Shown here: piece after piece, positions 9,038 to 60,128 of the stretch | Position numbering within the stretch: position 1 is the first letter of the stretch | How the letters are laid out: each line of letters starts with the position of its first letter | Assembly: GCA_002840305.1 (NCBI GenBank) | Contig: PHAI01000001.1 | Coordinates: 229,463 to 293,462 of the forward strand | From: Candidatus Falkowbacteria bacterium HGW-Falkowbacteria-1 | GTDB taxonomy: Bacteria > Patescibacteriota > Patescibacteriia > Patescibacteriales > UBA12465 | Length of the DNA: 64,000 nucleotides | Reading direction: 5' to 3' | Notes under the pieces: generated by a model | What the model was told of the DNA's origin: nothing | Seen by the model: only the letters and a program-made list of their open reading frames with translations | Database searches by the model: none | Made by a program: the position numbers and the translations under genes

Positions 9038-9040
9038 AAT

Positions 9041-9070
9041 AAAAAACCTGACTTGCGTCAGGTTTTTTTT
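9041..9070 (+). terminator. copy of the tRNA-Ser(GGA) terminator with compensatory stem changes
   Basis: Stem CCTGAC / GTCAGG (loop TTGC) plus a T-tract. Relative to 8105..8120, two stem positions changed on both arms so pairing is preserved. Confidence 0.7.
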
Positions 9071-28594: not shown

Positions 28595-29701
28595 ATGAAA
28601 AAATTTAAGTTATTGCCAGTCTTATTTCTAACATTTTTCTTAGGTGCTTGTTCTTTGAATTTTAAGACAAGCGGAGTCGGTGTTATGGACGGAGGCGTTT
28701 TTGTTACTGGAAATAAGGGAGAGTCTTGGAAGCAGATGTCTTCTATTCCTTCTATCTCTGGTGCCCCAGGAAGTATTGCCAATTCCGATGTAAATAGCTT
28801 TACGATTGACCCAAGCGACAGTGCGGCTATTTATTTATCTAGTATTGGCGATGGTCTTTATTATACCTATAATGTGGGCAGGGGCTGGAATAAAGCTTTA
28901 TCGCTTCCAGGAAATATCACTGTTAATGATGTTGCCGTAGATAACAAAGATAAATGTGTTATTTTTGTGGCCATGGAAAACAAGTTGTATCGAAGTGATG
29001 ATTGTTCTAGAAATTTTTCTCAAGTTTATTATGACAATAATCAGGGAGTTGGTGTTATGGCCGTGGCCCTGGATCATTACAACCCAAAAATTGTTTACAT
29101 GGGTACGTCTCGTGGCGATATTTTAAGAAGTTTTGACGGAGGGGATACATGGAGGGCAATTCAGAGATTGAACGATAGTGTTAAAAAAATATTAATAAAT
29201 CCAAAAGATAGCAGATCCGTTTTTGTTGCTACTACTAAAAATGGTATATATCGTTTTAATTCAGCCGGTGGAGCAAGCTTGGAGCAGCTAGAGGAGTATA
29301 AGAATCAATTTGATAATACTAATTGGACAGACTATAACAAGGAATTAAAAGAATTTGCTTTGGGTGTAAATTTTAAGGATTTAGTTTATTCCTATAGTGA
29401 CAATTCATTGTTTTTAGCCACTGACAAGGTTATAGTTAGATCTTTTGATGAGGGGCAGAGCTGGATTAAAATTAGTCTGCTTACTCCTGAGAGTGATTCT
29501 TCTATAAATGCTATCGCCATTAATCCTCAGAATGCCGATGAAATATTTTATGTTACTGATACTAGTTTCTATCGTTCTTATGACGGAGGAAATACTTGGA
29601 GTGTTAAAAAACTACCGAGTACTAGGGCTGGCAGTTCATTGTTAATTGATTTTAATAATCCTAGTATTATTTATCTTGGTATTAAGAAAATTAAAAAATA
29701 A
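28595..29701 (+). CDS. lipoprotein with BNR/Asp-box repeats (beta-propeller, Ycf48/sialidase-like fold)
   Basis: Lipobox FFLGAC. Asp-box-like repeats GNKGESW, SFDGGDTW, SFDEGQSW, SYDGGNTW. Confidence 0.75.
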   Translation: MKKFKLLPVLFLTFFLGACSLNFKTSGVGVMDGGVFVTGNKGESWKQMSSIPSISGAPGSIANSDVNSFTIDPSDSAAIYLSSIGDGLYYTYNVGRGWNKALSLPGNITVNDVAVDNKDKCVIFVAMENKLYRSDDCSRNFSQVYYDNNQGVGVMAVALDHYNPKIVYMGTSRGDILRSFDGGDTWRAIQRLNDSVKKILINPKDSRSVFVATTKNGIYRFNSAGGASLEQLEEYKNQFDNTNWTDYNKELKEFALGVNFKDLVYSYSDNSLFLATDKVIVRSFDEGQSWIKISLLTPESDSSINAIAINPQNADEIFYVTDTSFYRSYDGGNTWSVKKLPSTRAGSSLLIDFNNPSIIYLGIKKIKK

Positions 29702-36001: not shown

Positions 36002-38584
36002 ATGATTTCTAATACAAAAAAAAGAGGTTTTACTCTCATTGAACTCCTGGTGGTAATAGCTATTATCGGAATACTCGCAACGCTTGCCGTAGTAGCCTTG
36101 CAACAAGCAAGGCAAAACGCTAGAGATAGCAAAAGGATTGCAGACATGAAGCAGGTTCAAACCGCTTTAGAACTATTCTTTAATGAAAATGGAAGATATC
36201 CTACTACTGAAGAATGGAACAGCGGAGCTATTATTTCATCTTCTTCTCAGGAGGTGTTTATGTATAATATTCCTTCCGCCCCTACTCCAGCTGATGGAGA
36301 CTGTCTATCTGCTTCTAATACTTATACTTATATACCTCAAAACAATGGAGCTAGCTATACCATAGATTTCTGTACCGGCAAACAAGTTTCCGGCCTACCA
36401 GGTGGAGCCAAGCAAATGACTCCGGGCGGAATAATCTTCGCTGGTGGTGTCCCCGATGGAGGAGAGGCAGTTTGTGAACCTGCTTGTGGCGATGGTTATG
36501 ATTGCGTTGACGGTTCTTGCATTTTAGCTGGTAGCGATATTTACCACGTTGCAACGGTTGTTGATAATTCTATACCATATTTAAAGAACTCTTTTAATAT
36601 TGGTATGAGTGGAAATTATATTTTTGTTACAGATGATCGTAATCATTTTGAAACTTTAAATGCCTCTAATCCAGGAAGTCCAGTCCACAGCAGTTTATTG
36701 AGTGGTTTGTATTCTCCTAGAACCATATTTGTTGCTGATAATTTTGCTTATGTTCTCGGCAGTAATGGTTTGATAATTGTTGATATTTCTAACCCAGCTA
36801 ATCCAGTACAAAGAGGTACAGCTAATTTGGGTAATTTGGGTAATCCTAATGCTAAATTTTATGTTTCTGGTGATTATGTTTATAGTGTTGTTGATCAATA
36901 TTTTACCATCGCTGACATTTCTGATCCCGATAATCCATCTTTTGTAGCTGAATTCAGCAGATACTATGATTTTAATCCTATACCAGTACTTGCTCAGCCC
37001 CAAGGAATAATTGTTAGCGGTAGTTATGCCTATGTTGTAAATAGTGGCTATAATCCAGGGTCTGGTATCTATAACGCCTTAGAGGTTTTTGATGTTTCTA
37101 ATCCCTTGGACATTTCTCTTGTAACCAGAATTGTTAGCGGTGATGCTGGCGGGGCCGTAGTTGACGTTCCTACTAACTTAAACATTTATGGTAATTATTT
37201 ATATTTTGTTAATACTAATTATTATGCCACCGGTGATGAAGATTTGTCTTTGGAAATTATTAATATTTCTAATCCAGCATCGCCTGCCCATGTTACAAAT
37301 TTTGATTTAAATAGTACGGAGTTTCCAGTTGGCATGAAAATAGCGAGCAATAAGGCTTATATAGTCTCGGTTGATTATCTTCCTCAAGATCAACCCGGAA
37401 CGGTAACTATTGTTGATATAAGCAATGTTAGTAGCCCGGTTAAATTAGATGAAATAAGTAACGGTGAGGATGGCTCTGAAATTTTTCCTACTAGTGGAAT
37501 AGAAATTTCTGGCAATTACGCTTATATTAGTAATTCTAATTCTTCAATGGAGATTCTTAATATTTCCAACCCCTTACAAATTGAACACCATGGTATTATA
37601 CGGCACGGACAGAGTGGAACATTATTAGAATATCCAGCTGTGGTTTTTTCTTCTGGTGATGACGTTTATGTTGGTAGCGACAGGGGTCTGCAAATATTTA
37701 ATACTTCTAATAAAAGTAATCCAATTTCTGTTGGTAATATAGTCGATGGCGCTGCTGGCGCCAAGCTTAATTCCCCCTATGGTATAGATGTTGTTGGTAA
37801 TTATGCTTATATAGCTTCATATCAAAGTGATGCCTTAGAAATAGTTGATATTACCAATAAAGCCAATCCGGTTCATAAAGGTTATTTGGCTAATTTATCA
37901 GGTGGCGCTAAACTTGATGGTCCATATTCTGTAAAAGTAAAAGATAATTATGCCTATCTTGTTAGCTACTATGATAATGCCATGGAGGTGGTTAATGTTT
38001 CTGACCCAGCAAATCCAGTACATACATCAAGTATGATCAATAATTACTCAACTATAAATATTTATCGTCCTTATTCTATCTTTGTTTCTGGTGATTATGC
38101 ATATGTGGCCGGGATTAATGGTTTACAAATAATAGATATATCCAATCCAGCTTCGCCAATCGCTAAAGATAGTTTTTTAGATGGTGATGATGGCATTTCC
38201 TTTGAATCTTGGTCTGTTTTTGTCAGGGGTGATTATGCCTATATTGCTAGCTACTGGCCAGGCAAGATGGTTGTTTTTAATATTTCCGATCCAAACAATA
38301 TTGTTTTTGTTGGCGAGCTGGAACATGGAACGGGGGATACTAATTTAGAGTGTGCTAATAACATCTACGTTTCTAACGACTATGCTTATATAACTAATGA
38401 CTGTGATTATGCCTTGGAAGTTATTGATATATCTAATCCGTTAATGCCAGTACATGCCGCTAAAATAGACAACTCTACCGGAGCTGAATTTGAAGGACCA
38501 ATATCTGTTTCGGTTGCCAACGGATACGCTTTTATAGCTAGTAATTATAATAATATTTTTGAAGTGATAAAAGTCCCTAATTAA
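36002..38584 (+). CDS. modular type IV pilin: N-terminal pilin module fused to a large LVIVD-repeat (beta-propeller) domain
   Basis: KKRG|[24 protein letters not shown] class III signal. At least 10 LVIVD-type repeats ([90 protein letters not shown] ...). Confidence 0.85.
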
Positions 38585-39795: not shown

Positions 39796-40914
39796 ATGAA
39801 TATTTTGATTTTAATAACCAAAAGTGAAATTGGTGGTGCTCAGAAATTTGTAGCCAATTTGGCGCAGGGCTTAAAAGAGAAGGGAAACAAGGTCTCTATA
39901 GCTTCTGGTGAAAATAAGGGCTATCTTTTTGACTTTGCCAAAAGTAATAGCATAGATTTTCATTTTATTAGAGGCTTGGAGAGAAATTCTAACCCCTTTG
40001 CTAGTTTTGTTTTTTTAATAGATTTTTATTTGTTTTTAAAGAAGAATAAGCCTGACGTGGTTCATTTAAACAGCTCAAACGCCCTATTGGGAGCGATTTC
40101 GGCCAAATTGGCTAACATGGGAGTCAAAACTGTTTTTACCGTTCACGGCTTATCTGTTTTGGATAGTAATTACAAGGGGAATTTATTCAAAAGGGCTATT
40201 TTTATGGCCTTTTTTAAATTTTGTTTTCTTTTTGTTGACGATCTCGTTTTTGTTAGTCAGAATAACCTAAAACTGTCCATAAAGAATAATATGTCCAAAA
40301 GAGGCAGATTGATATATAATGGTGTAGATTTGAGTTTTATTGGCAGAGAGGAGGCTAGGAGGTTTATATTAAACAAGGTTGGCCTAAACGAAGCTAGCGA
40401 TGTTTTTCTGCTTGGATCGATTGGTAGATTGGCTTACCCTAAAAATTATGAGTTTTTAATAGAAAATTTCCACAAAATAAAAGAAATTAGAAGGAATATT
40501 AAGTTAGTTATTATAGGCGATGGCCCAGAAAAAGAGAGATATGCCAGTTTAATAAAGGCCAATGGCCATGAAAAGGATATAATATTACTTGGTAAAATAG
40601 ATGATGCTAGCAAGTATTTAAAGGCTTTTGATTTGTTCATTTTGCCCTCTATTTTTGAGGGTCTTTCCATAGTCTTGATAGAGTCATTGTTGTCTGGCAT
40701 AAAAATTGTAGCCAGCAACGTCGGTGGCAACAGTGAGGTAATCGGAATGGATAATTGCTATAAACTTAATGATATTGATGATTTTTTAAGGATTTTTAGA
40801 GAAAAAATATCTTCTGTACAAAAAAGTTGTACAGATAAAAATAAAGACAGCATTGAAAGGACTAGCTTTTCATCGGATAAAATGGTTGACAAATATATGG
40901 ATGTTTACAGGTAA
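39796..40914 (+). CDS. glycosyltransferase family 4 (GT-B)
   Basis: GSIGRLAYPKNYEFLI ... PSIFEGLSIVLIESLLSGIKIVASNVGGNSEVI (EX7E region). Confidence 0.8.
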   Translation: MNILILITKSEIGGAQKFVANLAQGLKEKGNKVSIASGENKGYLFDFAKSNSIDFHFIRGLERNSNPFASFVFLIDFYLFLKKNKPDVVHLNSSNALLGAISAKLANMGVKTVFTVHGLSVLDSNYKGNLFKRAIFMAFFKFCFLFVDDLVFVSQNNLKLSIKNNMSKRGRLIYNGVDLSFIGREEARRFILNKVGLNEASDVFLLGSIGRLAYPKNYEFLIENFHKIKEIRRNIKLVIIGDGPEKERYASLIKANGHEKDIILLGKIDDASKYLKAFDLFILPSIFEGLSIVLIESLLSGIKIVASNVGGNSEVIGMDNCYKLNDIDDFLRIFREKISSVQKSCTDKNKDSIERTSFSSDKMVDKYMDVYR

Positions 40915-40942
40915 TAATTTTATTATTTATTAAAATTTGTAT

Positions 40943-41884
40943 ATGAGAATATTAATAACTGGTGGATCTGGATTTATAGGCTCTTTTTTAAGTGAAAAGC
41001 TTGTAACTGATGGGCATGAGGTGCTTTGTTTGGACAATCTTTTTACCGGGAACAAGGAGAATGTTGCTCATTTGTTAGATAAAAACAATTTTTCTTTTAT
41101 AAACCACGATATTATTGATCCCTTTTATTTTGATGGAAAAATAGATCAGATATACAATTTGGCCTGCCCAGCCTCTCCTATTCATTATCAACAAAATCCT
41201 GTGAGAACTATTAAAGCTAATACCATTGGTGTTATAAATATGCTCGGTTTAGCTAGAGCCCATGGGGCTAAAATTCTCCAGGCATCAACTAGCGAGGTCT
41301 ATGGAGACCCAGAAGTTAGCCCTCAGAAGGAGAATTACAGAGGGAGCGTTAACACTATCGGCCCTCGGGCTTGTTACGACGAGGGTAAAAGATGTGCTGA
41401 GACTCTCTTTTTTGATTATAAAAGGATGCATGGCATGAATATTAAAGTAATTAGGATTTTTAATACTTATGGACCCAAGATGGCTTTAGACGATGGAAGG
41501 GTAATGTCTAATTTTATAATTCAAGCTTTGAAAAATGAGAATATCACTATTTATGGTGATGGTAGTCAGACTAGAAGTTTTTGCTACATCAGTGACTTGG
41601 TTGATGGTATGGTTAAAATGATGAATTCTGATTTTAGTGGTCCTATAAATTTGGGAAATCCGAACGAAATGACCATCAAATCTTTGGCCGAAATGATAAT
41701 TAAGAAATTGAACAGTAAAAGCAAGTTGATATTTATGAATTTACCAGAGGATGATCCAAAACAGAGATGTCCAGATATTTCCTTGGCTAAAAGTAAATTA
41801 AATTGGGAGCCGAAAGTTTCTCTGGAAGAAGGTCTAGATTATATATCTGATTTTTTTAAGAAAAAGCTAGAAAATATAGAATAA
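40943..41884 (+). CDS. UDP-glucuronate decarboxylase (UDP-xylose synthase)
   Basis: [67 protein letters not shown]. Collinear with the UXS family as I recall it. ATG 40943 preferred over TTG 40937. Confidence 0.88.
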
Positions 41885-41894
41885 TTTTAAAGAA

Positions 41895-44177
41895 ATGGAT
41901 AAAAATAAGAGAATCTTAATATTTTCCACTGCTTATTTTCCTTTTGTAGGAGGTGCAGAGGTGGCCGTCAAAGAGATAACCGATCGTTTAGGCTCCAGTT
42001 TTTCTTTTGACTTAATTACGGCGAAACTGAAAAGGGGTTTGCCCAGCCTTGAGAGAATTGGCGAAGTTAATGTTTATAGGCTGGGAATCGGTCATCCTTT
42101 GTTTGATAAACTTTTCTTGGCATTTTTAGGCTGGATAAAAGCTAAAAAATTAAATAAAAAGAATAAATACATATTTTCCTGGGCGATTATGGCTAGCTAT
42201 GGAGGTTTATCGGCTTTATTTTTTAAAAAAATATGTAGAACTCCCTTGTTTTTGACCCTACAAGAGGGCGATGACCTTGAATATATTAAGAAAAAAAGCT
42301 CTTTTATTAGAAAAAGCTTTTTGGAAATATTCAGTCGGGCTGATTTTATTCAAACTATTAGTAATTTTTTAAAATATTGGGCAATTAAAAATGGGGCCGA
42401 GTCAGAAATTCGAGTTATCCCTAATGGGGTTGATTGGCAAAAGTTTAGAAAGCCAGAAGGATTTGATAAACAAAATTTTCGTTTAAACTTGGGCTTTCAT
42501 GATGATGACAAGTTAATTATAACTACCTCTCGTTTAGTTAAGAAAAATGGCATAAAAGACTTAATTAGAGCTTTGTCTTTTTTAGATGAAGAATTTAAAC
42601 TTTTAATATTGGGTGAAGGGGAAGAAAAAGATGAATTAGTAAGATTAAGTGGAGATCTAGCCTTAAAAGATAGAATATATTTTCTAGGTACGATAAATCA
42701 TCAAGAGTTACCAAAATATTTATGGAGTAGCGACGTTTTTTGTCGCCCATCGTTGTCAGAAGGATTGGGCAATTCATTTTTGGAGGCAATGGCCGCTGGG
42801 CTTCCAGTGGTGGCTACTGAAGTTGGCGGTATTCCCGATTTTTTATGTGATGAAAAAAATGGTTTATTTTGTCAGGCAGAAAATGCTAAAAGCATTGCTA
42901 GCAAGATTAAACAAATATTTGACGATAGCAATCTTAGAAAAAAAATGGTTATAGAAGGTGCAAAAACAATACAAGAATCTTATACCTGGGATTTGGTCGC
43001 CGGTAGAATGTTTAAGGCTTTTATTGATCTAAATATTAAAAATAAGAACAGGAAATTAAATATATTAATTGCTACTGGAATTTTTCCACCAGATATTGGT
43101 GGCCCGGCGACTTATAGTAAATTATTGCTAGAAGAGTTGCCCAAAAGAAATTTTGCGGTTTCACTTCTAAGTTTTTCAAGTTTTCGAGATAAGTATCCAA
43201 AAATTATTAGTCATTTTTTATATTTTTTAAATATTTTAAAAGAGGGTAGGAATGTGGAGGTGATTTACGTTCAAGACCCGGTAAGTGTTGGTTTGCCAGT
43301 TTCTTTGGCCAACTTATTTTTACGAAAAAAAATGATATTAAAAATAGTTGGTGATTATGCTTGGGAGCAGGGATGTCAAAGGTTTAAGATCGTAGATTTG
43401 CTTGATGATTTTTCCCTTAAGTTTAAGGAGTATAATTTGATGGTCAAAATTTTAAAAAGAATTCAGCTTTTTTCGGCCAGACAAGCCACGATGATAATTG
43501 TTCCTAGCAATTATTTGAAAAAGATCGTGTCCAATTGGGGTGTAAGAGGGGATAAGATAAAGGTTATTTATAATGCTTTTAATGGTGCTTTGTGTGATTT
43601 AAATAAAGAAAGCGCCAGAAGAAATTTGGGGATAGATTTTGATGACAAAATAATTATTAGTGCTGGAAGGTTGGTGCCCTGGAAAGGTTTTGATAAGTTA
43701 ATTGAAGCGTTCAAAATTTTTTCCATTGGGGATGATAGAGCTAAATTGTTTATAGCTGGTGGAGGCACTGATGAAGACAAACTATTAGAATTAATTAAAG
43801 ATTTAAATTTGGAAAATAAAGTTGTTCTGTTGGGGAAACTGGAAAGAAACAAATTAATGCAGTATGTTATAGCCAGTGATGTTTTTGCGCTGAATACGTC
43901 TTATGAAGGCTTTTCTCATCAGTTGCTTGAAGTTATGTCTCTGGGTATACCAATAATGACGACTAGAGTTGGCGGCAATGTTGAACTCATTAGTGACAGG
44001 GAAAACGGTCTTTTTTTCGACTTCAATGATGTTCAAAAAATGAACGAATTAATGTTTGAATTATTTAATGATTCGGTTTTAAGATATAAAATATCGGAAA
44101 AGGCCTTGTTGAGAATAACCGACTTTAATGAAAATAAAATGTTTGAAGAATTAACTAATTTTTTAAGAGAAGTATAA
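41895..44177 (+). CDS. fused double glycosyltransferase (two GT4 modules)
   Basis: 760 aa with two EX7E regions: PSLSEGLGNSFLEAMAAGLPVVATEVGGIPDF and TSYEGFSHQLLEVMSLGIPIMTTRVGGNVELI. Confidence 0.8.
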   Translation: MDKNKRILIFSTAYFPFVGGAEVAVKEITDRLGSSFSFDLITAKLKRGLPSLERIGEVNVYRLGIGHPLFDKLFLAFLGWIKAKKLNKKNKYIFSWAIMASYGGLSALFFKKICRTPLFLTLQEGDDLEYIKKKSSFIRKSFLEIFSRADFIQTISNFLKYWAIKNGAESEIRVIPNGVDWQKFRKPEGFDKQNFRLNLGFHDDDKLIITTSRLVKKNGIKDLIRALSFLDEEFKLLILGEGEEKDELVRLSGDLALKDRIYFLGTINHQELPKYLWSSDVFCRPSLSEGLGNSFLEAMAAGLPVVATEVGGIPDFLCDEKNGLFCQAENAKSIASKIKQIFDDSNLRKKMVIEGAKTIQESYTWDLVAGRMFKAFIDLNIKNKNRKLNILIATGIFPPDIGGPATYSKLLLEELPKRNFAVSLLSFSSFRDKYPKIISHFLYFLNILKEGRNVEVIYVQDPVSVGLPVSLANLFLRKKMILKIVGDYAWEQGCQRFKIVDLLDDFSLKFKEYNLMVKILKRIQLFSARQATMIIVPSNYLKKIVSNWGVRGDKIKVIYNAFNGALCDLNKESARRNLGIDFDDKIIISAGRLVPWKGFDKLIEAFKIFSIGDDRAKLFIAGGGTDEDKLLELIKDLNLENKVVLLGKLERNKLMQYVIASDVFALNTSYEGFSHQLLEVMSLGIPIMTTRVGGNVELISDRENGLFFDFNDVQKMNELMFELFNDSVLRYKISEKALLRITDFNENKMFEELTNFLREV

Positions 44178-44178
44178 T

Positions 44179-45354
44179 ATGATTAATAATAAATATTTGA
44201 ATGTTTTGTCCATATCTTCTTACGGCGCAGATTTATCTGAAAATAGTGATAATGTTTTTTCCGGAGCCCAATTACGTCAAATAGATTATTCGAAGTTTTT
44301 CAATAAATATATAATAATTGTTCCTAGTAAAAAAGTATTTGAGAATAAAAGAATTGAGCTTTCCGATAATTTATTTGTTTATTCCATTTATGCTAATAAT
44401 AAATTGATTTTTTTAATAAAAGCTTACATAAAATCCTGTAAAATTATAAGAACAGAAAATATAAACCTTATAAGCTCTGATAATCCTTTTGATTCTGGCT
44501 TTATTGGTGTTTTATTAAAACTTAGATTCAGAGTTACCTTGCTTGTTCACAGTATGGCTGAAATGATTGATAACCGTTACTATATAAGAGAGAGATTCTT
44601 TAATTTTTTCAAGAATTTATTAGCGAAAGTCGTTTGTTTTTTTGCTGATTATGTAAGGGTTTCTACTAACACGGAAATAGAGAGAATGGCGGGAAGGGGT
44701 TTTAACAAAAAAAAGTTGTTGAAAGCAGGTTTCTATATTGACGGCGAAAGATTTGAGAATGCCGAATTAGACCAAAATTTAAAAGATACTATTTTGCAGG
44801 GTAAGTATGATAAAATAGTTCTTTATTTGGGAAGGATAGCATTACAGAAGGATATAAAAACATTACTTTTTAGCGTTCCGGATGTAATTAAACGCTTCCC
44901 TAAAACATTATTTTTGATTATTGGTGATGGTCCAGAAATGAATAATATTAAGAAAACAGTGAAAAAACTAAAGATTAATAATAATGTTGTTTTGTTGGGG
45001 AGGGTAAAATATAATGATGTGCCTAAATATTATAAAATAGCTGATATATTTTGTGCTACTTCAATTTATGAAGGGACCTGTATGACTCTTCATGAAGCTG
45101 CTGCCAGCAGACTTCCAATAATAGCAACAAAATTTGCCGGCGCGGTTGATTTAATAAAAAATGAGGAAAACGGTTATCTCGTTGAAATAGATGATAGTTT
45201 AGATTTGTCTGATAAACTAAAAAATATTTTAAGTGAACCAAATAAAATAAGAGTTATGGGTGAAAATAATTATAAAATTTTTAAAAATTTTCTTGATAAG
45301 GAAAAAATTTTGCAAGAGCACAAAGCTTTTTTCGAATATATTAAAAATAATTAA
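44179..45354 (+). CDS. glycosyltransferase family 4
   Basis: LGRIALQKDIKTLL ... SIYEGTCMTLHEAAASRLPIIATKFAGAVDLI. Confidence 0.8.
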   Translation: MINNKYLNVLSISSYGADLSENSDNVFSGAQLRQIDYSKFFNKYIIIVPSKKVFENKRIELSDNLFVYSIYANNKLIFLIKAYIKSCKIIRTENINLISSDNPFDSGFIGVLLKLRFRVTLLVHSMAEMIDNRYYIRERFFNFFKNLLAKVVCFFADYVRVSTNTEIERMAGRGFNKKKLLKAGFYIDGERFENAELDQNLKDTILQGKYDKIVLYLGRIALQKDIKTLLFSVPDVIKRFPKTLFLIIGDGPEMNNIKKTVKKLKINNNVVLLGRVKYNDVPKYYKIADIFCATSIYEGTCMTLHEAAASRLPIIATKFAGAVDLIKNEENGYLVEIDDSLDLSDKLKNILSEPNKIRVMGENNYKIFKNFLDKEKILQEHKAFFEYIKNN

Positions 45355-45382
45355 AGTTATATTTACATAAAATCAGATATAT

Positions 45383-46432
45383 ATGAAAATGCTTATATTA
45401 ACTCAAAAGATGGATAGGAATGATAGTATTTTGGGATTTTTTCATCGTTGGGTAGAGGAGTTCGCTAAAAATTGCGAAAAGGTAATAGTTATTTGTCTTT
45501 ATGAAGGAAAACATAATCTGCCAGAGAATGTACAGGTTTTGTCTTTGGGTAAAGAAAGTGGTGTCTCAAAGTTAAAATATATTTTTAGATTTTATAAGTA
45601 TATTTGGCAATATAGAAAAGACTATGAAAACGTTTTTGTTCATATGAATCAAATTTATGTTATTTTGAGTTCTTTTTTGTGGAAGTTTTTAGGCAAGAAA
45701 ATTGGTTTATGGTATGCCCATGGTGGTATTAGTAAGTCTTTGAAGATGGCGGAAAGGAGAACGAATATTGTTTTTACTTCAACCCCTTCCGGCTTTAGAT
45801 TAAAAAGCGCTAAAATAAGAATAGTCGGGCAGGGAATAGATGCAAATGTTTTCAAGGCAGATAGAAATAAGAGAGACAAAAGCATTTTTAAGATAACAAC
45901 GGTTGGTAGAATATCTCCCATAAAAGATTATGAAACACTTATTTATTCATTAGAGACAGCAAGAACCAAATTGGGTAATTTAAAGGTAGATATAATCGGC
46001 GAAGCCTGTACGGAAGACGACAAAAAATATTTGTTAGATTTGAAAAAAATAATTAGTAGTTATGATTTAGATGGTGTTGTTAATTTCGTTGGTCCGCTTA
46101 GCAATGAAGAGGTGGTGCCTTATTTGCAGCGCTCTGATTTGTTTGTTAATATGAGTCATACTGGTAGCCTGGATAAAGCAATCCTGGAGGCGATGGCCTG
46201 TGGCCTTTCTGTTTTGACTTGCAATGAAGCGTTGTTAGCTCTAGATTTAAAAAATAAAGATGATTTGATGTTTGTTAAAAATGACGTCAAAGATTTGTCA
46301 GATAAAATATTGAAAAACTATTTAATGAGTGCGGAGGACAGAATTAAATTGGAGGAGTATTTGTCAGCTTTCGTATCAAATACTTTTTCTCTAGATCTAT
46401 TAATTGCTAAAATTATAAAAAATTATGGATAA
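45383..46432 (+). CDS. glycosyltransferase family 4
   Basis: VGRISPIKDYETLI ... SLDKAILEAMACGLSVLTCN. Confidence 0.7.
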   Translation: MKMLILTQKMDRNDSILGFFHRWVEEFAKNCEKVIVICLYEGKHNLPENVQVLSLGKESGVSKLKYIFRFYKYIWQYRKDYENVFVHMNQIYVILSSFLWKFLGKKIGLWYAHGGISKSLKMAERRTNIVFTSTPSGFRLKSAKIRIVGQGIDANVFKADRNKRDKSIFKITTVGRISPIKDYETLIYSLETARTKLGNLKVDIIGEACTEDDKKYLLDLKKIISSYDLDGVVNFVGPLSNEEVVPYLQRSDLFVNMSHTGSLDKAILEAMACGLSVLTCNEALLALDLKNKDDLMFVKNDVKDLSDKILKNYLMSAEDRIKLEEYLSAFVSNTFSLDLLIAKIIKNYG

Positions 46433-47141
46433 TGTTCAACAAAAACAAGAGGAAGAATATTCAAGGCCTTATCATTATTTTATAAATAGAAACAGTAGAG
46501 TCGGTCTTTTTTATTATTCTTATATTCAGCCGGTGATTGACTATATAGAGAAAAAAGAAAATTTTACAATTCTTGACGCTGGCTGTGGAGATGGTTTTGT
46601 CGAAAGCATGCTTGGCGACAAAAACAAAATTTATGGGGTTGATTATTCTGAAAGGGCTATTAAATTTGCAAAATTATTTAACGAGGAATCAAAATCGAAA
46701 ACTTTTTCTTGTCAAAGTATTTCCGATTTAGATTTTTCTGGTGATTATTTTGATTTAATTGTCAACTTGGCCGTTTTTGAACACATTAGGCCGGATGTTT
46801 GTGGCGATGTTTTGAAGGAGTTGAACAGGGTTATTAAGGGCGACGGTAAGTTGATTATGGCTGTTCCTACGAAGAATCTACCAAAGCCAGGTAAACATTA
46901 TAGACATTTTTGTTATGATGAAATAGAGACTTTATTGAAGGATAATGGTTTTTTTATTGATGAATATTCATATGTGTTTAACAAAAACTTTAATTATATT
47001 GCAAAGTTTATAGATAATAGCGCTTGGCAAATTAGTTTCTTGTTAAAATTTTTAGGAAAAATTTTCAGAAAATATTTTATTTCTGCTAATAAAAAAAATG
47101 GTCTTATGATGTTAATTTTTTGTAAAAAAATTAATAAATAA
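46425..47141 (+). CDS. class I SAM-dependent methyltransferase
   Basis: ILDAGCGDGF motif I, VFEHI. Overlaps the upstream GT by 8 nt. Confidence 0.75.
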   Translation: MDNVQQKQEEEYSRPYHYFINRNSRVGLFYYSYIQPVIDYIEKKENFTILDAGCGDGFVESMLGDKNKIYGVDYSERAIKFAKLFNEESKSKTFSCQSISDLDFSGDYFDLIVNLAVFEHIRPDVCGDVLKELNRVIKGDGKLIMAVPTKNLPKPGKHYRHFCYDEIETLLKDNGFFIDEYSYVFNKNFNYIAKFIDNSAWQISFLLKFLGKIFRKYFISANKKNGLMMLIFCKKINK

Positions 47142-47147
47142 AATATT

Positions 47148-47813
47148 ATGAGTGTTCAGCTTAAAGAAATAAAAGAATCAAAAACTTTTAATAGAATAGT
47201 AAGCAAATATAATTTAGATTCCAAGAAGGTTTTAGATCTTGGTTGCGGAACGGGGCAACATTTACTTAAATTTGGCCCAGATAGTCTTGGGGTTACTATT
47301 ACTACAAGTGAAATAGAGGACGGTCGAAATAATAAATTAAATATTGTTGGTGGCAATGTTGAATTTATTGACAATATGGGTTTAGATTCTGATTTTCAGA
47401 TAATTTGGGCTAATAATTTGATTGAGCATCTTTTGTCTCCTCATTCATTTTTAATTAAACTAAAAACAATTTCCAATAAAGACACGCTTTTAATTTTGGG
47501 GGTTCCTGTTATTCCCAAAATTCATAGTTTGTTAAAATTAAAAAAATTTAAAGGTTCCTTGGCCATTAATCATGTGAATTTCTTTAATAAAAAAACATTA
47601 GAGAAAACAGTTGAAAGAGCCGGTTGGAGGATAATTGATTCAAAATCTTTCGTTTTTGCTAATAATTTTTTAGATAAAATATTTGGTTTAATTTCTCCGC
47701 ATATTTATATTGTGGCCAGCAATGATACTGGCTTTAAATATTCTATAAAAAAAATTAAAGAATGTGAAAATGATAAACGCTATCAAGATTTGTTAGATAT
47801 CGTAGAAAAATAA
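47148..47813 (+). CDS. class I SAM-dependent methyltransferase
   Basis: VLDLGCGTGQH motif I, NNLIEHL. Confidence 0.7.
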   Translation: MSVQLKEIKESKTFNRIVSKYNLDSKKVLDLGCGTGQHLLKFGPDSLGVTITTSEIEDGRNNKLNIVGGNVEFIDNMGLDSDFQIIWANNLIEHLLSPHSFLIKLKTISNKDTLLILGVPVIPKIHSLLKLKKFKGSLAINHVNFFNKKTLEKTVERAGWRIIDSKSFVFANNFLDKIFGLISPHIYIVASNDTGFKYSIKKIKECENDKRYQDLLDIVEK

Positions 47814-47841
47814 ATTTGATTAATAAATTATAACAATTGTT

Positions 47842-48648
47842 ATGTTCTACAAAATTATTGAAAAAATTAAGTTTAATTATAAGGTGTCTTTTAATTTTGG
47901 GTTAAACTTTTTTTATAAAATCAAGTTTTTTTTATCATTGTTTTTAATTTCAATTTCAAAAAAAATAGTGCCTAAAATAAATTATTCGATTAAGTTAATT
48001 TTAAGAAATGATAAGAGCGTCTTTTCGTTTTATTTGTCAGACATCTCAGATTTAGGTGCTTTTACTGAGATATTCATAAACAAGGAGTATGAAGTGAATT
48101 TGTCCAAGGATCCTGGTATTATTTTTGATTTAGGCAGTAATTCTGGTCTTTCGGTTATATATTTTAAACTTAAGTATCCAAATTCGAAAATTTTTGCCTT
48201 TGAGCCCAATCCATTTGCATTTGAAAAGTTAAAAAAGAATACGGCTCAGTTTAGTGATGTTTTTTATTATAACGTGGCCATATCGGATCTTGATGGTTCG
48301 GATAAATTTTATGTTTGTGATGTAGACAGCTTGTCGTCTTCCTTTGTCAAAAGAAAAACAAAAGGGCACTATTTAGAGGTTAAAACGAGAAGTATTGGCA
48401 GTCTAATTAAAGAGCTTGGCTTAGATAGAATTGATTTAATGAAGTTTGATGTTGAGGGTGCTGAATTTAAAATATTTAATAATGATTTTCCTTTTGATTT
48501 GTTTGATTCAATGATTGGTGAAGTTCATTTGGACCTAATTGATTTTAATATTGATAAACAAGAATTTTTGAGTAAATTTAAACAGTTTTATAATGTTAAT
48601 ATTTTTGATATTTCAAATAAAAGATTTGTTTTAAAAATTGAAAAATAA
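47842..48648 (+). CDS. FkbM-family methyltransferase
   Basis: IIFDLGSNSGLS, IFAFEPNPFAFEKLKKN, IDLMKFDVEGAE. Confidence 0.75.
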   Translation: MFYKIIEKIKFNYKVSFNFGLNFFYKIKFFLSLFLISISKKIVPKINYSIKLILRNDKSVFSFYLSDISDLGAFTEIFINKEYEVNLSKDPGIIFDLGSNSGLSVIYFKLKYPNSKIFAFEPNPFAFEKLKKNTAQFSDVFYYNVAISDLDGSDKFYVCDVDSLSSSFVKRKTKGHYLEVKTRSIGSLIKELGLDRIDLMKFDVEGAEFKIFNNDFPFDLFDSMIGEVHLDLIDFNIDKQEFLSKFKQFYNVNIFDISNKRFVLKIEK

Positions 48649-48653
48649 AATTT

Positions 48654-49277
48654 ATGCTTTCTATAATAAGAGATCTTGAATACAAAACAATTTCGAACTT
48701 AAGTTTGGATGGAAAAATTTTGGATTTGGGTGGTAGCAAGAAGTCCGGGTATCATCAATTAATCGGCGGGAAACATGAAATTTTGACTGTTAACATAGAC
48801 TCGGATTACGGTTGTGATTTGGTTTTTGATATCGAGAAGTCTTTCCCCCTAGAAGATAATAGCTTTGATTTTATTTTGCTTATGAATGTCTTGGAGCATA
48901 TTTATAAATTTGAAAATGTTATTTCAGAATCTAGCAGGGTGTTAAAAAAGGAGGGGAAAATATATTTGGCCGTTCCCTTTATGCATCAAATTCACGGATC
49001 TCCTAATGATTTTTTTAGATATTCTAAGGCTACGTTGGAAAGATTGTTGTTGGAAAATAATTTTGAAAAGATAGAAATAAAGGAGCTTGGTTTTGGTTTT
49101 TTATCTCTTGGATTTCAGACTTTTTTTATTGGTTTTATTCCTTTTTTGTTTTGCAAAAATGTCGTTAAGAGTTTGTTTATTCTTATTGATAAAATTATTT
49201 TAAAATTTTCACCACGTTATCGCCGTTGGGCAAAAAACAACCCAATGGGTTATTGGGTTTCGGCTACAAAGAAATAA
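48654..49277 (+). CDS. SAM-dependent methyltransferase (type 11-like) with C-terminal hydrophobic segment
   Basis: ILDLGGSKKSGY, LLMNVLEHI, GKIYLAVPF. Confidence 0.6.
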   Translation: MLSIIRDLEYKTISNLSLDGKILDLGGSKKSGYHQLIGGKHEILTVNIDSDYGCDLVFDIEKSFPLEDNSFDFILLMNVLEHIYKFENVISESSRVLKKEGKIYLAVPFMHQIHGSPNDFFRYSKATLERLLLENNFEKIEIKELGFGFLSLGFQTFFIGFIPFLFCKNVVKSLFILIDKIILKFSPRYRRWAKNNPMGYWVSATKK

Positions 49278-49293
49278 TTTGTTAAATAGTTTG

Positions 49294-50547
49294 TTATTTG
49301 CTTATTTTTTTATTAGATAAGAAGATTAATTCGAAAACGTAGGAAAGTAATATGGCAAATATTATTCCAGTTATGCCAAAATAATTTATAAGAACAAAAA
49401 GTAATATAATTCTTATTATCGGTTTGATGATGTTGTACTGATACAAGGTCATTTTTTTTTCTTTAGCCTGGAATGCACTTATCAGCAACATTATGGGCCC
49501 TATAAGAACGAGCGATAGTGAAAACAATTGAGAGTAAAATATTGATTCTAAATATTGAGGAAAGAATACTCTATAAGCAAAGGGCGCTATTAAGATATAA
49601 CAAAACGACATTATTGCTAAAATGAGGGTCATTTTTAGTATCTTTGGTTTTAAATTTGTTTTTAAGTTTTCGGTGCTTGTTGCACTAAATTTTGGCAATG
49701 CTAACGCATTTATGTTTTTTATTAACCCTTTCATCTGCTCAACTGGAGCTATCGCTATGGAATATATAGCCAGCTCAGAGGCCCCTAGGTAATGGAATAT
49801 TAATAGTTTGTCCAAATAAATAGAGAAAATATTCAAGATGGACATTAGGCTTAAATGTTTCCCATAAGAAATAGTATTCGGGTCTTTTTTTTCATTTAAT
49901 TTGTTTTTTGAAAGAGTTATTTTTAATAAGATTAATCTAAGCAATGTATTACTTAATAAATATGAACTAACTATTAGATATATATTTTTTGTGAAAAAGA
50001 TGGTCACAACCATTGTTATGGCTGATATTATTCTGATGAAGACAGTGTAGCGACCTAAAGTTTTAAAATTTTTTTTTCCATTTAAATAGGACTCGTATAT
50101 TAGAATAGAATCCATGAATGGTATAAAAACGGAGACTATTAAAAAGGCGATTGCCAAAGTATCGTTGTTTTGTAGGTAATAGTAGAGGGCAAGACTTAAC
50201 CCCAACAGACCTCCAAGTAGTCCCCATTTAATTTTTGTTTTAAGGGCCGAGATAAGCGAACCTTCATAACCACGAGCCACGGCCTGTATTATGGCTGTAT
50301 TCATCCCGGTTAGTGTTGGTATGGCTAACAGAGAAACTATGGACATTATATATTTATAAGTTCCATAAGTTTCTTTGGGTAGTAAGTTGGCGAAGGCTAT
50401 AGCTAATAAAAAAGCAGAAACACTAGACACGCCCTGTCCCAGTGTTAGCCAAAAGCCTCCTTCGGCCAGATAAACCATGTCAGTTTTTGTCCATTTTTCT
50501 GATTTTTTTAGCAATTTATAGATTGCTATTTTTATTTTTTCAATCAT
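49294..50547 (-). CDS. Wzx-like polysaccharide flippase (MOP superfamily)
   Basis: 417 aa with about 12 TM helices. Sits in an operon with the priming transferase and epimerase, and its start overlaps the epimerase stop by 1 nt. Confidence 0.7.
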   Translation of the reverse strand: MIEKIKIAIYKLLKKSEKWTKTDMVYLAEGGFWLTLGQGVSSVSAFLLAIAFANLLPKETYGTYKYIMSIVSLLAIPTLTGMNTAIIQAVARGYEGSLISALKTKIKWGLLGGLLGLSLALYYYLQNNDTLAIAFLIVSVFIPFMDSILIYESYLNGKKNFKTLGRYTVFIRIISAITMVVTIFFTKNIYLIVSSYLLSNTLLRLILLKITLSKNKLNEKKDPNTISYGKHLSLMSILNIFSIYLDKLLIFHYLGASELAIYSIAIAPVEQMKGLIKNINALALPKFSATSTENLKTNLKPKILKMTLILAIMSFCYILIAPFAYRVFFPQYLESIFYSQLFSLSLVLIGPIMLLISAFQAKEKKMTLYQYNIIKPIIRIILLFVLINYFGITGIIFAILLSYVFELIFLSNKKISK

Positions 50548-51527
50548 TATATTTTATAATATTCTTTATACCATTCAACAAATTTTTTAACCCCTTCTTC
50601 TATATTGGTCTTTGGGTCGTAATTCAACATTTTTTTAGCCTTGGAAATATTGGCGAAAGTTTTTTCTACATCTCCCGGCTGAATGGGCTCAAGCTTGATG
50701 TTTGCCTTTTTGTTCAAATTTTCTTCTAATAATTTTATCAAATATCCTACTTCTACTGTTTGTGAATTTCCTAAATTGAATATTTCATAGGGATAAGCTT
50801 TTTCTAATGACTTGATAATGCCATCAACTATGTCATCAACATAAGTAAAATCCCTTAACATTTTTCCATAATTGAACAATTTAACTTCCTTGTTGTTCAT
50901 TATTTCGTTGGTGAATAAATACATAGCCATATCTGGCCGGCTGCTAGGACCATAAGCGGTAAAGAATCTTAATCCAGTGCAATTTATGTCAAACAAATGA
51001 TGATAATTGTGAGCAATAAGTTCGTTGGATTTTTTAGTAGCCGCATATAGAGAGATGGGGCTATCGACATTGTCCTCTTCTTTGAAGCCATCTTCGTTCA
51101 TTTCATTTTTACCGTAGACAGAGGAGCTGGAAGCGTAAATAAAGTCTTTTATATTAAATTTTTTAGCGCATTCCATGATATTGATAAAACCCTTTAAATT
51201 GCTTTGTTGGTATATCAAAGGGTTCTCTATGGAATATCTTACGCCAGGTTGGGCTGCTAGATGACAAATCTTGTCTATATTGTTTTCCTCAAAAACTTTT
51301 TCTAATTCTTTTTCTTCACTAATATCCAATTGATAAAATTTATAGCTATTATATTTTTTTAGAATATCATTGCGATGATTTTTAAGATCTTGAGAATAGT
51401 AATTGTTGATTGAATCAATGCCGATAACATTGAATCCATCTTCTAATAATTTTTTAGCCGTGTGAAAACCAATGAAGCCGGCAGAACCAGTAACTAGTAT
51501 GGTTTTTTTATTTTCTGAATTTCTCAT
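50547..51527 (-). CDS. NAD-dependent epimerase, UDP-glucuronate 4-epimerase family
   Basis: VTGSAGFIGFH, HLAAQPGVRYS, YASSSSVYG, SLYAATKKSNE, GLRFFTAYGPSSRPDMA. Confidence 0.8.
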   Translation of the reverse strand: MRNSENKKTILVTGSAGFIGFHTAKKLLEDGFNVIGIDSINNYYSQDLKNHRNDILKKYNSYKFYQLDISEEKELEKVFEENNIDKICHLAAQPGVRYSIENPLIYQQSNLKGFINIMECAKKFNIKDFIYASSSSVYGKNEMNEDGFKEEDNVDSPISLYAATKKSNELIAHNYHHLFDINCTGLRFFTAYGPSSRPDMAMYLFTNEIMNNKEVKLFNYGKMLRDFTYVDDIVDGIIKSLEKAYPYEIFNLGNSQTVEVGYLIKLLEENLNKKANIKLEPIQPGDVEKTFANISKAKKMLNYDPKTNIEEGVKKFVEWYKEYYKI

Positions 51528-51593
51528 ATTTTTTTGATTTTATTTTTTTATCCTAAGAATCATAAACATCTGAATTCCAGGAATCTTATTTTA

Positions 51594-52970
51594 TTATCTA
51601 CCTTCTTGCCCCAGGGCTGTCTTGATTGTTTTTAAAATAATACTTATATCCAAGTAGAACGATCTATTTTTAATATAAAACAAATCATATTGTAATTTCT
51701 TGTATGTATCTTCAACCGAGGGCGAATGATATTCACCCGATATTTGATCCCAACCACTTATACCAGGTTTAACCAAGCTTCTAACACTGTAAAAGGGAAT
51801 GTTGTTTGCTAGTTCTTTTATTATTTCTGGCCTTTCTGGTCGTGGGCCAACAAAGCTCATGTCTCCTCTTAGAACGTTTAAGAGCTGTGGTATTTCGTCT
51901 ATTCTACTTTTTCGAAGAAATTTACCCAGTACGGTTATCCTGGGGTCGTTTTCTTCGGTGGGAGCGTGATTATTTTTTTCTACTCTCATTGTTCTGAATT
52001 TATAAAGATTAAAGTCCTTATTATTCTTACCACTCCTTGTCTGTTTAAACATGACTGGTCCATGGCTCGTTATTTTTATTAAGATAGCGATTATAATAGA
52101 TAGTGGGAAAGCAAAAATTAAAAAGAAAAAAGATAGAAATAGATCAAAAATTCTCTTGATTCCCTCAAACGTTCTTTTTTCTGCCAGGTTTAAATTTTCC
52201 AAAAACCAAGCCTTGTTTAAAATTTCAAGAGGTATTTGTCCGCTGATCTCTTCGTAAAAATTTATCAGATTGTAGTAGTTTATGCCGCTTGGCAATAAAT
52301 TAAACAAGGTTTTTTGGAGATCTTTCATTTCGCCAAGGTCTTTCTCCAGAATCAAGCTGTCTATTTTATAGTCTTTTATCGCTCGAGATAGTTGATTGGC
52401 GTCTTCTACTATTTTAAGATCATAAATATCTGCTATATCTACTAAAACATTGTTTTTTTCGCTCAGTAGAAATTTAACATTGTATCCTAGTTGAGGGTTC
52501 TTTTTTATAGCCTGGATTGTTTTTCTTATTATTTCATTATAACCAATCATGGCAATATTTGATCCCGGTAGATATTTTTTATTGATTGATAAAAATAGCA
52601 ACCGCCAAAGAGTGAACAAGACGAAAGAAAAGGAGGCAAATATAAGTAAATTAGTTTTGGGGGTTATCTGGGCATATGGGACTAGATAAAACAAAATCAT
52701 GGAAAGAAAAAATGAAATAAGGGCACTTTTTATGCTTCTTTCTATGAGCTTATTTTGATTGATAATTTTTTTAAAATCATATAAGCTATTAATATAGAAA
52801 ATCATTAGCCATAGAAGAAAGACTGGAATAAAAATTTGAAAATGCTTTTCTTCTATTTCTGGCGATAGTTCGTCGGCGTATCTAAGAATCAGTGTGATTT
52901 TTAGAGAAATAAATAAAATGCTTAGATCTACCAGAAACAAAATTGTCTGTTTTATTTTTTTATTGTTCAT
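51594..52970 (-). CDS. polyprenyl-phosphate glycosyl-1-phosphate transferase (bacterial sugar transferase, priming enzyme)
   Basis: C-terminal domain [21 protein letters not shown] ... [24 protein letters not shown]. Confidence 0.88.
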
Positions 52971-53041
52971 ATTTTAGTTTTAGTTGTTTCTATTATAGCA
53001 GTAATTATTATAATAAATCAAATTTAATAAATTTAAAATTT

Positions 53042-55477: not shown

Positions 55478-56998
55478 ATGTTTAACCAAAAGAAAAAGGC
55501 TTTTACCTTAATTGAATTGTTGGTAGTAATAGCTATTATTGGAATACTGGCTACTTTGGCTGTAGTAGCTCTCCAGCAAGCTAGATCTAGGGCTAGGGAC
55601 AGTAAAAGAGTGGCTGATATGAAACAGGTATCTACTGCTTTAGAATTATTTTTTAATGAAAATGGTAGATATCCAACGACAGAAGAGTGGGAAAGCGGTT
55701 CTATAACTTCTTCTACTACTGGGGAAGTATTTATGTATAATATTCCTTCCGCTCCAACTCCGGCTGACGGGTCTTGTTTAGAGGCTTCCAACACCTATGT
55801 TTATACTCCCGTTGACAATGGTGCTAGTTATGCTATTGATTTTTGCATCGGGACACAACTCTCAAACTTAAATTCAGGCGGTAAACAACTTATTCCTGGT
55901 GGTATAATTGATTTCGGTGAGTCAGCAGGAGAAGAAGAAAGCGGAGGAGAGACGGAAACGGTCTGCTTGACCTCGCCCACCTCTTGTTCCTGGGAAATGT
56001 TAGGCAGTTCTGGTTTTTCTGGACCCTGGATTGATAATTTAATTCTTGATATTGACCAAGGAGTTCCTTATATAGGGAACACCGGTGGTTCTTATGAGTT
56101 TTTTGTCATGAAATATAATGGTACTTCTTGGGAGGATATTGGCGGTGATGTAGCGGGATATGCAGTTTCTAATGGTGTAGATTTTGACGTTTATAATGAC
56201 GTTCCCTATGTATCTTTTCAAGACCCAAACGACCTTAATCGACTTACAGTTATGAAGTATAATGGATCTTCTTGGGTATTTGTGGGCAACTCTACTATTT
56301 CGTCTGGGCAAGCCAATGCTTCTTCTATTTACCTTTATAATACTGTTCCTTATATAGCCTATAGTAATCAAGTTTCATATACAATTCCAGAAGCTACCGT
56401 TTCTACTTACAATGGTAGTTCTTGGCAAAATGTTGGTACTCCTGGTTTTTCTACGGATGGAATTTCTCAAACATCGCTCATTGTTTATAATGGAACGCCA
56501 TATGTTGCTTTTCAAGATTTCGCCAGTTCTTATGAGGCCACAGTTATGAAGTATAATGGCTCTTCGTGGGAATATGTTGGTGACCCCGGTTTTTCTTCTG
56601 GGCAAATTGATGGGATGACCTTTGATATTTATAATGGAGTTCCTTATGTTGCATTTAGAGATGCTTCTAATTCTTACAAGGCAACGGTTATGAAATATAA
56701 TGGCTCTGATTGGGAGGTGGTTGGGTCTGCTGGTTTTTCTGCCGGTATGGCGATGGAGAAGGTTGTTATAGATGTTTACAATGGGGTTCCGTATGTTGCT
56801 TATAGTGAAACTTCAAATGGTGGTAAAGCGACTATTATGAAATACAATGGTACTTCATGGGAAAACTTTGGTGCTCCTGGGTTTTCCTCTGGCGTGGCTT
56901 ATAAAATCAGCTTTATTATTGATGATGGGATCCCTTATGTTTCTTATCAACAAGACCACGAAGCTGTTGTTACAAAATTTACTCCAATTCAGGAATAA
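55478..56998 (+). CDS. modular type IV pilin: N-terminal pilin module fused to seven ~48-aa repeats (probable 7-bladed beta-propeller)
   Basis: KKKA|[24 protein letters not shown]. Repeats of the form ATVMKYNGSSWEYVGDPGFSSGQ......IYNGVPYVAF.D. Confidence 0.85.
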   Translation: MFNQKKKAFTLIELLVVIAIIGILATLAVVALQQARSRARDSKRVADMKQVSTALELFFNENGRYPTTEEWESGSITSSTTGEVFMYNIPSAPTPADGSCLEASNTYVYTPVDNGASYAIDFCIGTQLSNLNSGGKQLIPGGIIDFGESAGEEESGGETETVCLTSPTSCSWEMLGSSGFSGPWIDNLILDIDQGVPYIGNTGGSYEFFVMKYNGTSWEDIGGDVAGYAVSNGVDFDVYNDVPYVSFQDPNDLNRLTVMKYNGSSWVFVGNSTISSGQANASSIYLYNTVPYIAYSNQVSYTIPEATVSTYNGSSWQNVGTPGFSTDGISQTSLIVYNGTPYVAFQDFASSYEATVMKYNGSSWEYVGDPGFSSGQIDGMTFDIYNGVPYVAFRDASNSYKATVMKYNGSDWEVVGSAGFSAGMAMEKVVIDVYNGVPYVAYSETSNGGKATIMKYNGTSWENFGAPGFSSGVAYKISFIIDDGIPYVSYQQDHEAVVTKFTPIQE

Positions 56999-58980: not shown

Positions 58981-58993
58981 ATTTTTTTATATT

Positions 58994-60100: not shown

Positions 60101-60128
60101 AATGTTATTTTTTTGTTATATTGTTTAT

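Follow-up and report, generated by a model that had tools for sequence, protein, structure and literature searches.

A shared pilin handle with different beta-propeller heads: two putative modular type IV pilins of a Candidatus Falkowbacteria genome

The window analyzed here, a stretch of 64,000 nucleotides from contig PHAI01000001.1 (positions 229,463 to 293,462; GC content, 32%) of Candidatus Falkowbacteria bacterium HGW-Falkowbacteria-1, holds two genes whose products, of 860 and 506 amino acids (aa), are probably modular type IV pilins, in which a handle resembling a major pilin is followed by a flexible linker and a beta-propeller head displayed on pili. Both open reading frames (ORFs) lie on the plus strand, where an earlier interpretation of this DNA from its letters and translations (hereafter the sequence-only reading) had placed them, and the organism, which was then likened to Candidate Phyla Radiation (CPR) bacteria, is indeed a Candidatus Falkowbacteria. 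CPR bacteria, or Patescibacteria, cannot do without attachment to their hosts' cells, for which type IV pili are their best-supported organelle; we infer for both proteins a role as pilus-displayed adhesins or determinants of host specificity. The two genes and their parts are listed below, with structures predicted by AlphaFold2 (AF2) from alignments combining head homologues and handle homologues for both proteins, and with local confidence expressed as pLDDT (predicted local distance difference test).

36002..38584, plus strand: putative 860-aa modular pilin gene (CVU82_01300, PKM91825.1); ORF with exact database match, N_methyl and 12 LVIVD stretches; AF2 mean pLDDT 90.4
36002..36028, plus strand: leader peptide MISNTKKRG (aa 1-9), which prepilin peptidase is predicted to cut off behind Gly9 (motif G/FTLIE, Glu at +5; TIGR02532)
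36029..36436, plus strand: pilin handle of the 860-aa protein (aa 10-145), with alpha1 helix, beta-sheet, Cys101-Cys124 and TPGGII end
36437..36532, plus strand: flexible linker (aa 146-157), then a four-cysteine mini-module (aa 158-173); pLDDT <50 at aa 150-159, small hairpin at 166-175
36533..38581, plus strand: head 1 (aa 178-860), predicted tandem double beta-propeller of LVIVD repeats (Pfam, AF2, Foldseek)
55478..56998, plus strand: putative 506-aa modular pilin gene (CVU82_01380, PKM91841.1); ORF with exact database match; AF2 mean pLDDT 91.4
55478..55501, plus strand: leader peptide MFNQKKKA (aa 1-8), Ala at -1 (motif A/FTLIE; N_methyl 1.3e-8)
55502..55909, plus strand: pilin handle of the 506-aa protein (aa 9-144; BLASTP; AF2 helix 11-62, strands 84-145)
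55910..55972, plus strand: acidic Gly/Ser/Glu linker with two cysteines (aa 145-165); pLDDT <50 at aa 149-157
55973..56995, plus strand: head 2 (aa 166-506), predicted 7-bladed beta-propeller of ~48-aa xYNGxxW repeats (AF2, fold search, DNA repeats D1 and D5, weak PF12768)

Over their full length, the two proteins are identical to database entries (UniRef100_A0A2N2EAS8 for the 860-aa protein and A0A2N2EAT3 for the 506-aa protein), and their genes sit on a contig of 302,033 bp. Each begins with a class III signal, i.e., a short basic leader, Gly or Ala at -1, Phe at +1, Glu at +5 and ~21 hydrophobic residues, and these signals are canonical as proposed earlier, with both proteins scoring above the cutoffs of PF07963 (N_methyl; E 2.4e-9 and 36.8 bits for the 860-aa protein, 1.3e-8 and 34.5 bits for the 506-aa protein; cutoff 21.2) and TIGR02532 (36.1 and 32.0 bits, respectively; cutoff 16.3). 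The shared module, put at about 80% identity by manual alignment in the sequence-only reading, gives in BLASTP a gapless alignment of aa 4-145 of the longer protein with aa 3-144 of the shorter one (113/142 identities, 80%; E 3e-73), and the similarity stops at PGGII, beyond which BLASTP of one protein against the other finds nothing significant. The handle DNA of the two genes is 71-72% identical and has diverged mostly at synonymous sites, again as foreseen: codon differences are 63 synonymous and 29 non-synonymous, 75 of the 123 base differences fall at third positions, and the Nei-Gojobori method (NG86) yields 0.16-0.17 non-synonymous (dN) and 2.8-3.2 synonymous (dS) substitutions per site, hence a dN/dS of ~0.05-0.06. 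With dS saturated and dN/dS low, the window copies are old paralogues kept similar by purifying selection. A recent duplication or gene conversion between them is ruled out by this saturation and by a nucleotide identity of 68-80% along the handle. C101 and C124 of the handle, whose small beta-sheet would be disulfide-bonded, are invariant in 137 relatives.

Regarding the structure, a pilin fold after the N-terminal helix, which had been named beforehand as a test of the proposal, is predicted at high confidence in both proteins (block pLDDT mostly 88-97 in the pilin part). Both models place a 52-residue alpha1 helix (residues 12-63 in the 860-aa protein, 11-62 in the 506-aa protein) on an antiparallel beta-sheet (strands 85-146 and 84-145, respectively), the so-called "lollipop" fold, and the handle sequence matches solved pilins and GspG in phmmer searches (E 1e-11 to 1e-5). 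The N-terminal module is therefore no generic secretion tag, since it forms a complete pilin domain and is 60% identical overall to CVU82_00650, a stand-alone pilin of 154 aa encoded in this genome, with near-identity through alpha1. It is chiefly this likeness which argues that the modular proteins could take subunit positions in the filament of CVU82_00650, the gene of which is bordered by long intergenic gaps.

Between handle and head, linkers of 12-25 residues include ~10 residues at pLDDT <50, and the four-cysteine motif of the 860-aa linker recurs in four relatives (L023, L033, P0010 and P0055). Similarity ending at PGGII, linkers of low pLDDT and independent propeller heads together make up the layout of a modular pilin. 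Fold searches match beta-propellers for both heads, in agreement with the propeller-like heads first proposed. For head 1, Pfam LVIVD (PF08309) is found with E 2.7e-62 and 206.3 bits (cutoff 20.2); the LVIVD-type repeats reported earlier are thus present, and the figure of at least 10 was an underestimate, with 12 Pfam stretches and, in the AF2 model, 56 strands forming 14 four-stranded blades. Foldseek matches this head best to tandem WD double seven-bladed propellers, Utp21 (4nsx) being one example. For head 2, the seven KYNGxxW repeats of ~48 aa counted in the sequence-only reading hold, with six clear xYNGxxW motifs and one closing blade in the translation, 7 blades in the AF2 model and a spacing of 144-147 nt for the DNA repeats D1 and D5. 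The best fold matches of this head are the LGI1 EPTP propeller, the propeller of a BT3686-type glycoside hydrolase (GH) and the 7-blade PLL/PHL lectins of Photorhabdus, with putative neuraminidases also among the matches. The 506-aa protein reaches 30.8 bits against PF12768 (Rax2 C-terminal propeller; cutoff 28.8) as a whole protein, no single stretch passing alone, and relatives of its head carry PF12768 as a precomputed label; the fold itself is of a generic 7-blade propeller type. Neither window protein has a Pfam match at E<=1 to RCC1 or PilY1-type (IPR008707) propellers. Head homologues in other phyla are attached to type IX secretion system (T9SS) C-terminal domains or to PGF-CTERM, SLH, cadherin or peptidase modules, which fits with a surface-displayed binding module; judged from these fusions, the heads seem to behave as portable surface-display modules, the pilin here replacing the anchor.

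Pilus assembly genes were expected elsewhere in the genome, and pilM, pilB and pilC do lie on the same contig. Within 10 kb upstream of where the window begins (L001), the gene order is PilM (PilM_2), three small unannotated ORFs, a PilB-type ATPase (MshEN and T2SSE, 591 aa), PilC (T2SSF, 401 aa), FemAB, YbeY and pilin genes, and the minor-pilin cluster that follows the assembly genes, the tail of the pilus operon, crosses the window start:

132..497, plus strand: minor-pilin-like gene, C-terminal end of a pilin of 216 aa (N_methyl)
507..1088, plus strand: minor-pilin-like gene (N_methyl); the annotated start differs from the ORF start, called product 191 aa
1018..1614, plus strand: minor-pilin-like gene
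1620..2672, plus strand: 350-aa FISUMP-domain protein, last gene of the minor-pilin cluster (Fib_succ_major 1.8e-33)

The 350-aa FISUMP protein has a hydrophobic N-terminal helix without a GFxxxE motif and the head type of most members of the handle family described below; it is a candidate pilus tip protein. A few genes downstream of the cluster, a DsbA/thioredoxin-like protein is encoded at 6641..7375. MdbA-like oxidoreductases are reported to form a CPR-enriched family linked to pilin folding (PMC6744442).

A plausible course of events can be drawn from these elements. The prepilin would enter the membrane by the N-terminal segment of alpha1, with the head folding outside the cell, prepilin peptidase would cut off the leader of 8-9 residues, and the PilM/PilB/PilC machine, whose genes lie ~30 kb upstream, would polymerize the handle into the same filament as CVU82_00650. 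A head of 40-77 kDa on the surface-exposed C-terminus would then leave with the filament, be displayed at the tip or along the shaft and bind a ligand, probably a glycan or a surface protein of the host cell. CPR genomes are reported to encode type IV pili without the outer-membrane secretin PilQ (PMC6744442), whose steric barrier would thus be missing, and bulky heads could therefore exit with the filament.

Several points weigh against the assignment of the two proteins as pilus-displayed modular pilins. PilD and PilT, which would have completed the expected assembly genes, were not found in 84 kb of this contig, Peptidase_A24 having no match among the scanned window ORFs (a few short ones left out) or among the called genes of L001 and L004. 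Both modular genes lie outside the pilus operon. A 77-kDa double propeller cannot pack on every subunit, which would make its incorporation rare or restricted to the tip. Finally, a propeller fold does not reveal its ligand, and the fold matches include glycoside hydrolases and sialidases.

The position of the genes outside the operon and the bulk of the heads also suit a different explanation, which we hold to be unlikely while giving it some weight: the handle would be only a processed membrane anchor, or build a very short pseudopilus, with the propellers held at the membrane on the cell surface, not brought out on long pili, as in the pseudopilins of type II secretion systems or the class III-signal sugar-binding proteins of the archaeal bindosome. 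Indeed, the best named matches of the handle are GspG-type pseudopilins, yet these fall below the cutoffs, with 49.4 (860-aa) and 48.3 (506-aa) bits against the 88.85 of the GspG equivalog TIGR01710 and 15.3 and 15.9 bits against the 21 of PF08334, the alignments being confined to the alpha1 region; homologous heads are moreover found elsewhere on cell-surface anchors rather than filaments. However, purifying selection is strong across the globular part as well as the transmembrane helix, which would be needless for a mere anchor, the alpha1 of the handle is nearly that of a stand-alone pilin, and experimental precedents place modular pilins in pili (PMC8179133, PMC11623550).

A still less probable explanation accepts display on pili or on the surface and sees the heads as enzymes of glycoside hydrolase or sialidase type, degrading polymers of the host envelope, instead of adhesins. 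The hydrolase and neuraminidase matches of head 2 would agree with it, as would the BNR/sialidase-type domains of family members and the catalogued modular pilins bearing peptidases (PMC8179133), but neither window protein reaches significance for any catalytic family in Pfam or NCBIfam, lectins and protein-binding propellers match the fold equally well, and sequence identity to all fold matches is 8-14%. That an artefact (a chimera of the assembly, or a gene call fusing a pilin and a propeller gene) produced the architecture is rejected as very improbable even though the source is a metagenome-assembled genome (MAG) and one sister-MAG orthologue is split, given that 3 contigs of various sources have records of identical proteins, that unbroken orthologues and paralogues with the same TPGGII-linker junction occur in at least five independent MAGs and many metagenomes, and that an unrelated sample shows the 506-aa gene in conserved synteny.

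The sequence-only reading had described one handle with swapped heads in two proteins; the shared handle and the differing heads are confirmed, and the two proteins turn out to belong to a large lineage-specific family in which one conserved handle bears many unrelated heads. A word-indexed search with the handle only returned thousands of Patescibacteria pilins, mostly of 140-165 aa, and was saturated by these short proteins, so the frequency of heads was taken from a scan of species-representative genomes and from an exhaustive search of representatives. The genome scan gave 40 handle loci in five related MAGs, where all 34 complete genes encode a head, which extends the protein 51-621 aa past the handle to a total of 202-765 aa. 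There are 9 to 11 or more copies of the handle in the best-sampled sister genomes, with up to 11 complete genes in one. Handles at least 72% identical to the query carry a head in every complete gene, while no bare pilin exceeds 70%, and stand-alone pilins stop 1-9 residues past the TPGGI motif. HGW-Falkowbacteria-1 itself has at least two family copies, those in the window; the handle of a third gene, CVU82_02535 (238 aa), is 66% identical and lies outside the 72% group. The exhaustive search of 1.84 billion cluster representatives returned 301 proteins at E<=1e-30, and in a set made of the 135 top hits and the two window proteins, 134 of the 137 have a head of at least 40 aa (median length 417 aa).

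The heads were surveyed with Pfam in 105 of these 137 representatives. Fib_succ_major, the FISUMP domain, which we take to be that of InterPro entry IPR011871, accounts for 48 of the 105 and LVIVD for one, the rarer types being Listeria-Bacteroides repeats, ConA-like lectin, DUF5122, BNR/sortilin propellers, Lcl_C and Hint. Propeller heads would thus be a minority in a family of mostly lectin-like heads, as far as domain matches tell. Single-linkage clustering of the heads was discarded in favor of this census, as it over-merged them (109 in one cluster) via shared FISUMP, Cys-rich and Hint segments. FISUMP and DUF1566 heads are known targets of diversity-generating retroelements, and no template/variable repeat pair of such an element was found in the window.

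Some individual members merit description. In related MAGs, the genes L006 6001..8043 and L024 6001..8157 show the same handle, a propeller, a Cys-rich spacer and then a C-terminal Hint/intein-like domain (CFLSGTKI...VHN; PT-HINT 8.5e-9), a tail whose sequence suggests self-cleavage or ligation of the head. A 14-kb metagenome contig (L092, 4395..12293) encodes three LVIVD proteins in tandem (886, 857 and 869 aa), with a class III motif near each N-terminus. The sister-MAG orthologue of the 860-aa gene (L023, DAOMZR010000001.1; P0122) is split into a 367-aa ORF with the handle and first blades and a 476-aa LVIVD ORF, the result either of a pseudogene or frameshift or of an assembly error.

Across the family, handles do not group by head type. 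Three sets of copies within genomes of sister MAGs (L023/L011, L006/L009 and L010/L012/L014) have handles 90-96% identical in nucleotides and unrelated heads, and both at the start codon and at the PGGII junction this identity falls off sharply to the random level. For L023, the handle has a dS of 0.39 to an in-genome FISUMP paralogue versus 1.51 to the handle of the window gene, and the orthologous head regions of L023 and the window gene differ with a dS of 1.04. This pattern of sequence divergence is what gene conversion, or a swap of heads, would leave behind if it took place once the lineages had separated. Since no more than 4 of the 114 pairs within genomes have a nucleotide identity of at least 90%, exchange would be occasional; in the sister genomes, the handle, or the head, would now and then pass between copies within one genome. 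The window pair shows no sign of handle exchange. One may tentatively go further and regard the ~420-nt handle as the dedicated carrier cassette of a lineage-specific multigene family (9 to 11 or more copies, always with a head, in a genome of roughly 1 Mb), in which homologous recombination, made possible by the conserved handle sequence, moves or homogenizes handles and swaps heads between loci, creating for these episymbionts an exchangeable repertoire of pilus-displayed binding modules, a possibility to which we give less than even weight. If true, this cassette logic would be comparable to pilin antigenic variation or to the swapping of phage tail-fibre cassettes.

The surroundings of the 506-aa gene provide a further lead, as a membrane protein gene precedes it by 141 bp:

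52943..55336, plus strand: Wzy_C (O-antigen-ligase-like) and tetratricopeptide repeat (TPR) membrane protein (Pfam Wzy_C 8.9e-13)

The order Wzy_C, pilin, 236-aa ORF and two glycosyltransferase family 4 (GT4) genes is kept in an independent metagenome contig (L093, Wzy_C at 166..2454). Both PglL and the pilin O-oligosaccharyltransferases PilO/TfpO belong to the Wzy_C family, so that O-glycosylation may occur on the 506-aa pilin or on its Ser/Thr/Gly linker, the functional link to the neighbouring Wzy_C protein being only a lead. Bracketed by the two modular pilin genes, a glycan biosynthesis island (39796..52970 and 57838..60100) contains several GT4 genes, two NAD-dependent epimerase/dehydratases, four methyltransferases, a Wzx-like flippase and a Bac_transf initiating transferase. 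Scans for promoters and terminators near both pilin genes gave only consensus-level matches in AT-rich DNA and are not used as evidence.

Elsewhere in the window, a 368-aa protein (28595..29701) with Sortilin-Vps10/BNR propeller repeats and a predicted propeller fold has no pilin signal. A 756-aa ORF (60102..62372) has no Pfam or NCBIfam match and includes three 42-nt tandem repeats (61230..61388, 91-92% identical). Beside tRNA-Ser (8008..8095), a 123-nt direct repeat (8156..8278 and 9137..9259; 91% identical) and an adjoining 48-nt repeat with a terminator-like hairpin (8079..8126 and 9021..9068) flank a minus-strand ORF (8333..8887), an arrangement that may have arisen by duplication of the tRNA 3' region or be a scar left by some small insertion.

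Much of the general principle is already known. Modular pilins were defined by Raynaud et al. (2021; PMC8179133), who catalogued 1,219 proteins in 264 architectures, demonstrated that Streptococcus sanguinis PilB is an adhesin and that modular pilins are polymerized via their pilin module, and listed (Dataset S1) ~30 proteins combining a pilin and LVIVD (IPR012902 and IPR013211) and 40 combining a pilin and IPR011871. Their extreme example is an 860-residue Candidatus Falkowbacteria protein with 12 copies of IPR013211, which by length, taxon and repeat count, rather than by accession, is very probably the 860-aa protein of the window. A propeller-bearing pilin of CPR bacteria has also been studied genetically, PilX2 of Nanosynbacter lyticus TM7x, a minor pilin with a heptabladed lectin-like propeller, whose deletion halves host binding with the filament still forming (Grossman et al., PMC11623550). 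The statement of the sequence-only reading that such pilins were uncharacterized is hence outdated. The 506-aa protein is a new member; its head carries no firm InterPro or Pfam signature and would probably be missed by signature-based surveys. As far as our searches show, the literature holds no description of the family-level features, i.e., the head-bound handle, the multi-copy family and the handle exchange. The two window proteins thus add examples, not a principle, and it is the family-level pattern that is worth following up, with its carrier handle, handle exchange, Hint tails and Wzy_C neighbour. For an uncultivated lineage, the handle family provides a concrete list of candidate host-recognition determinants, and one handle with many heads would help to explain how surface specificity diversifies in tiny genomes.

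Among known systems, the S. sanguinis modular pilins PilB, with a von Willebrand factor A (vWA) domain, and PilC, with a lectin domain, have the layout of the window proteins, in which a class III signal and a pilin module at the N-terminus are followed by a short linker and a grafted non-pilus domain. They are, however, minor pilins encoded in the pil locus, and their pilin modules are small and divergent, whereas the window proteins have a full major-pilin-like handle common to a multi-copy family, scattered genes and propeller heads. PilX2 is likewise a CPR pilin with a C-terminal 7-bladed PLL-like propeller, and the 506-aa head also matches PLL/PHL lectins; it differs by its RCC1-type repeats, its non-canonical signal and its place inside the pilus locus, the window proteins having canonical signals, xYNGxxW or LVIVD repeats and a location outside the locus. 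The PilY1/PilC tip adhesins of Pseudomonas and Neisseria also have a beta-propeller presented by type IV pili for adhesion, but PilY1 is not a pilin and docks on the minor-pilin tip complex, while the window propellers are covalently fused to a pilin, and the likeness is one of function alone. Lastly, LVIVD (PF08309) surface proteins of Bacteroidota and methanogens share the double-propeller module, with 28-45% identity along the head, and carry it on T9SS C-terminal domains or PGF-CTERM anchors or in fusions with peptidase or Ig domains, whereas in the window the anchor is a pilin.

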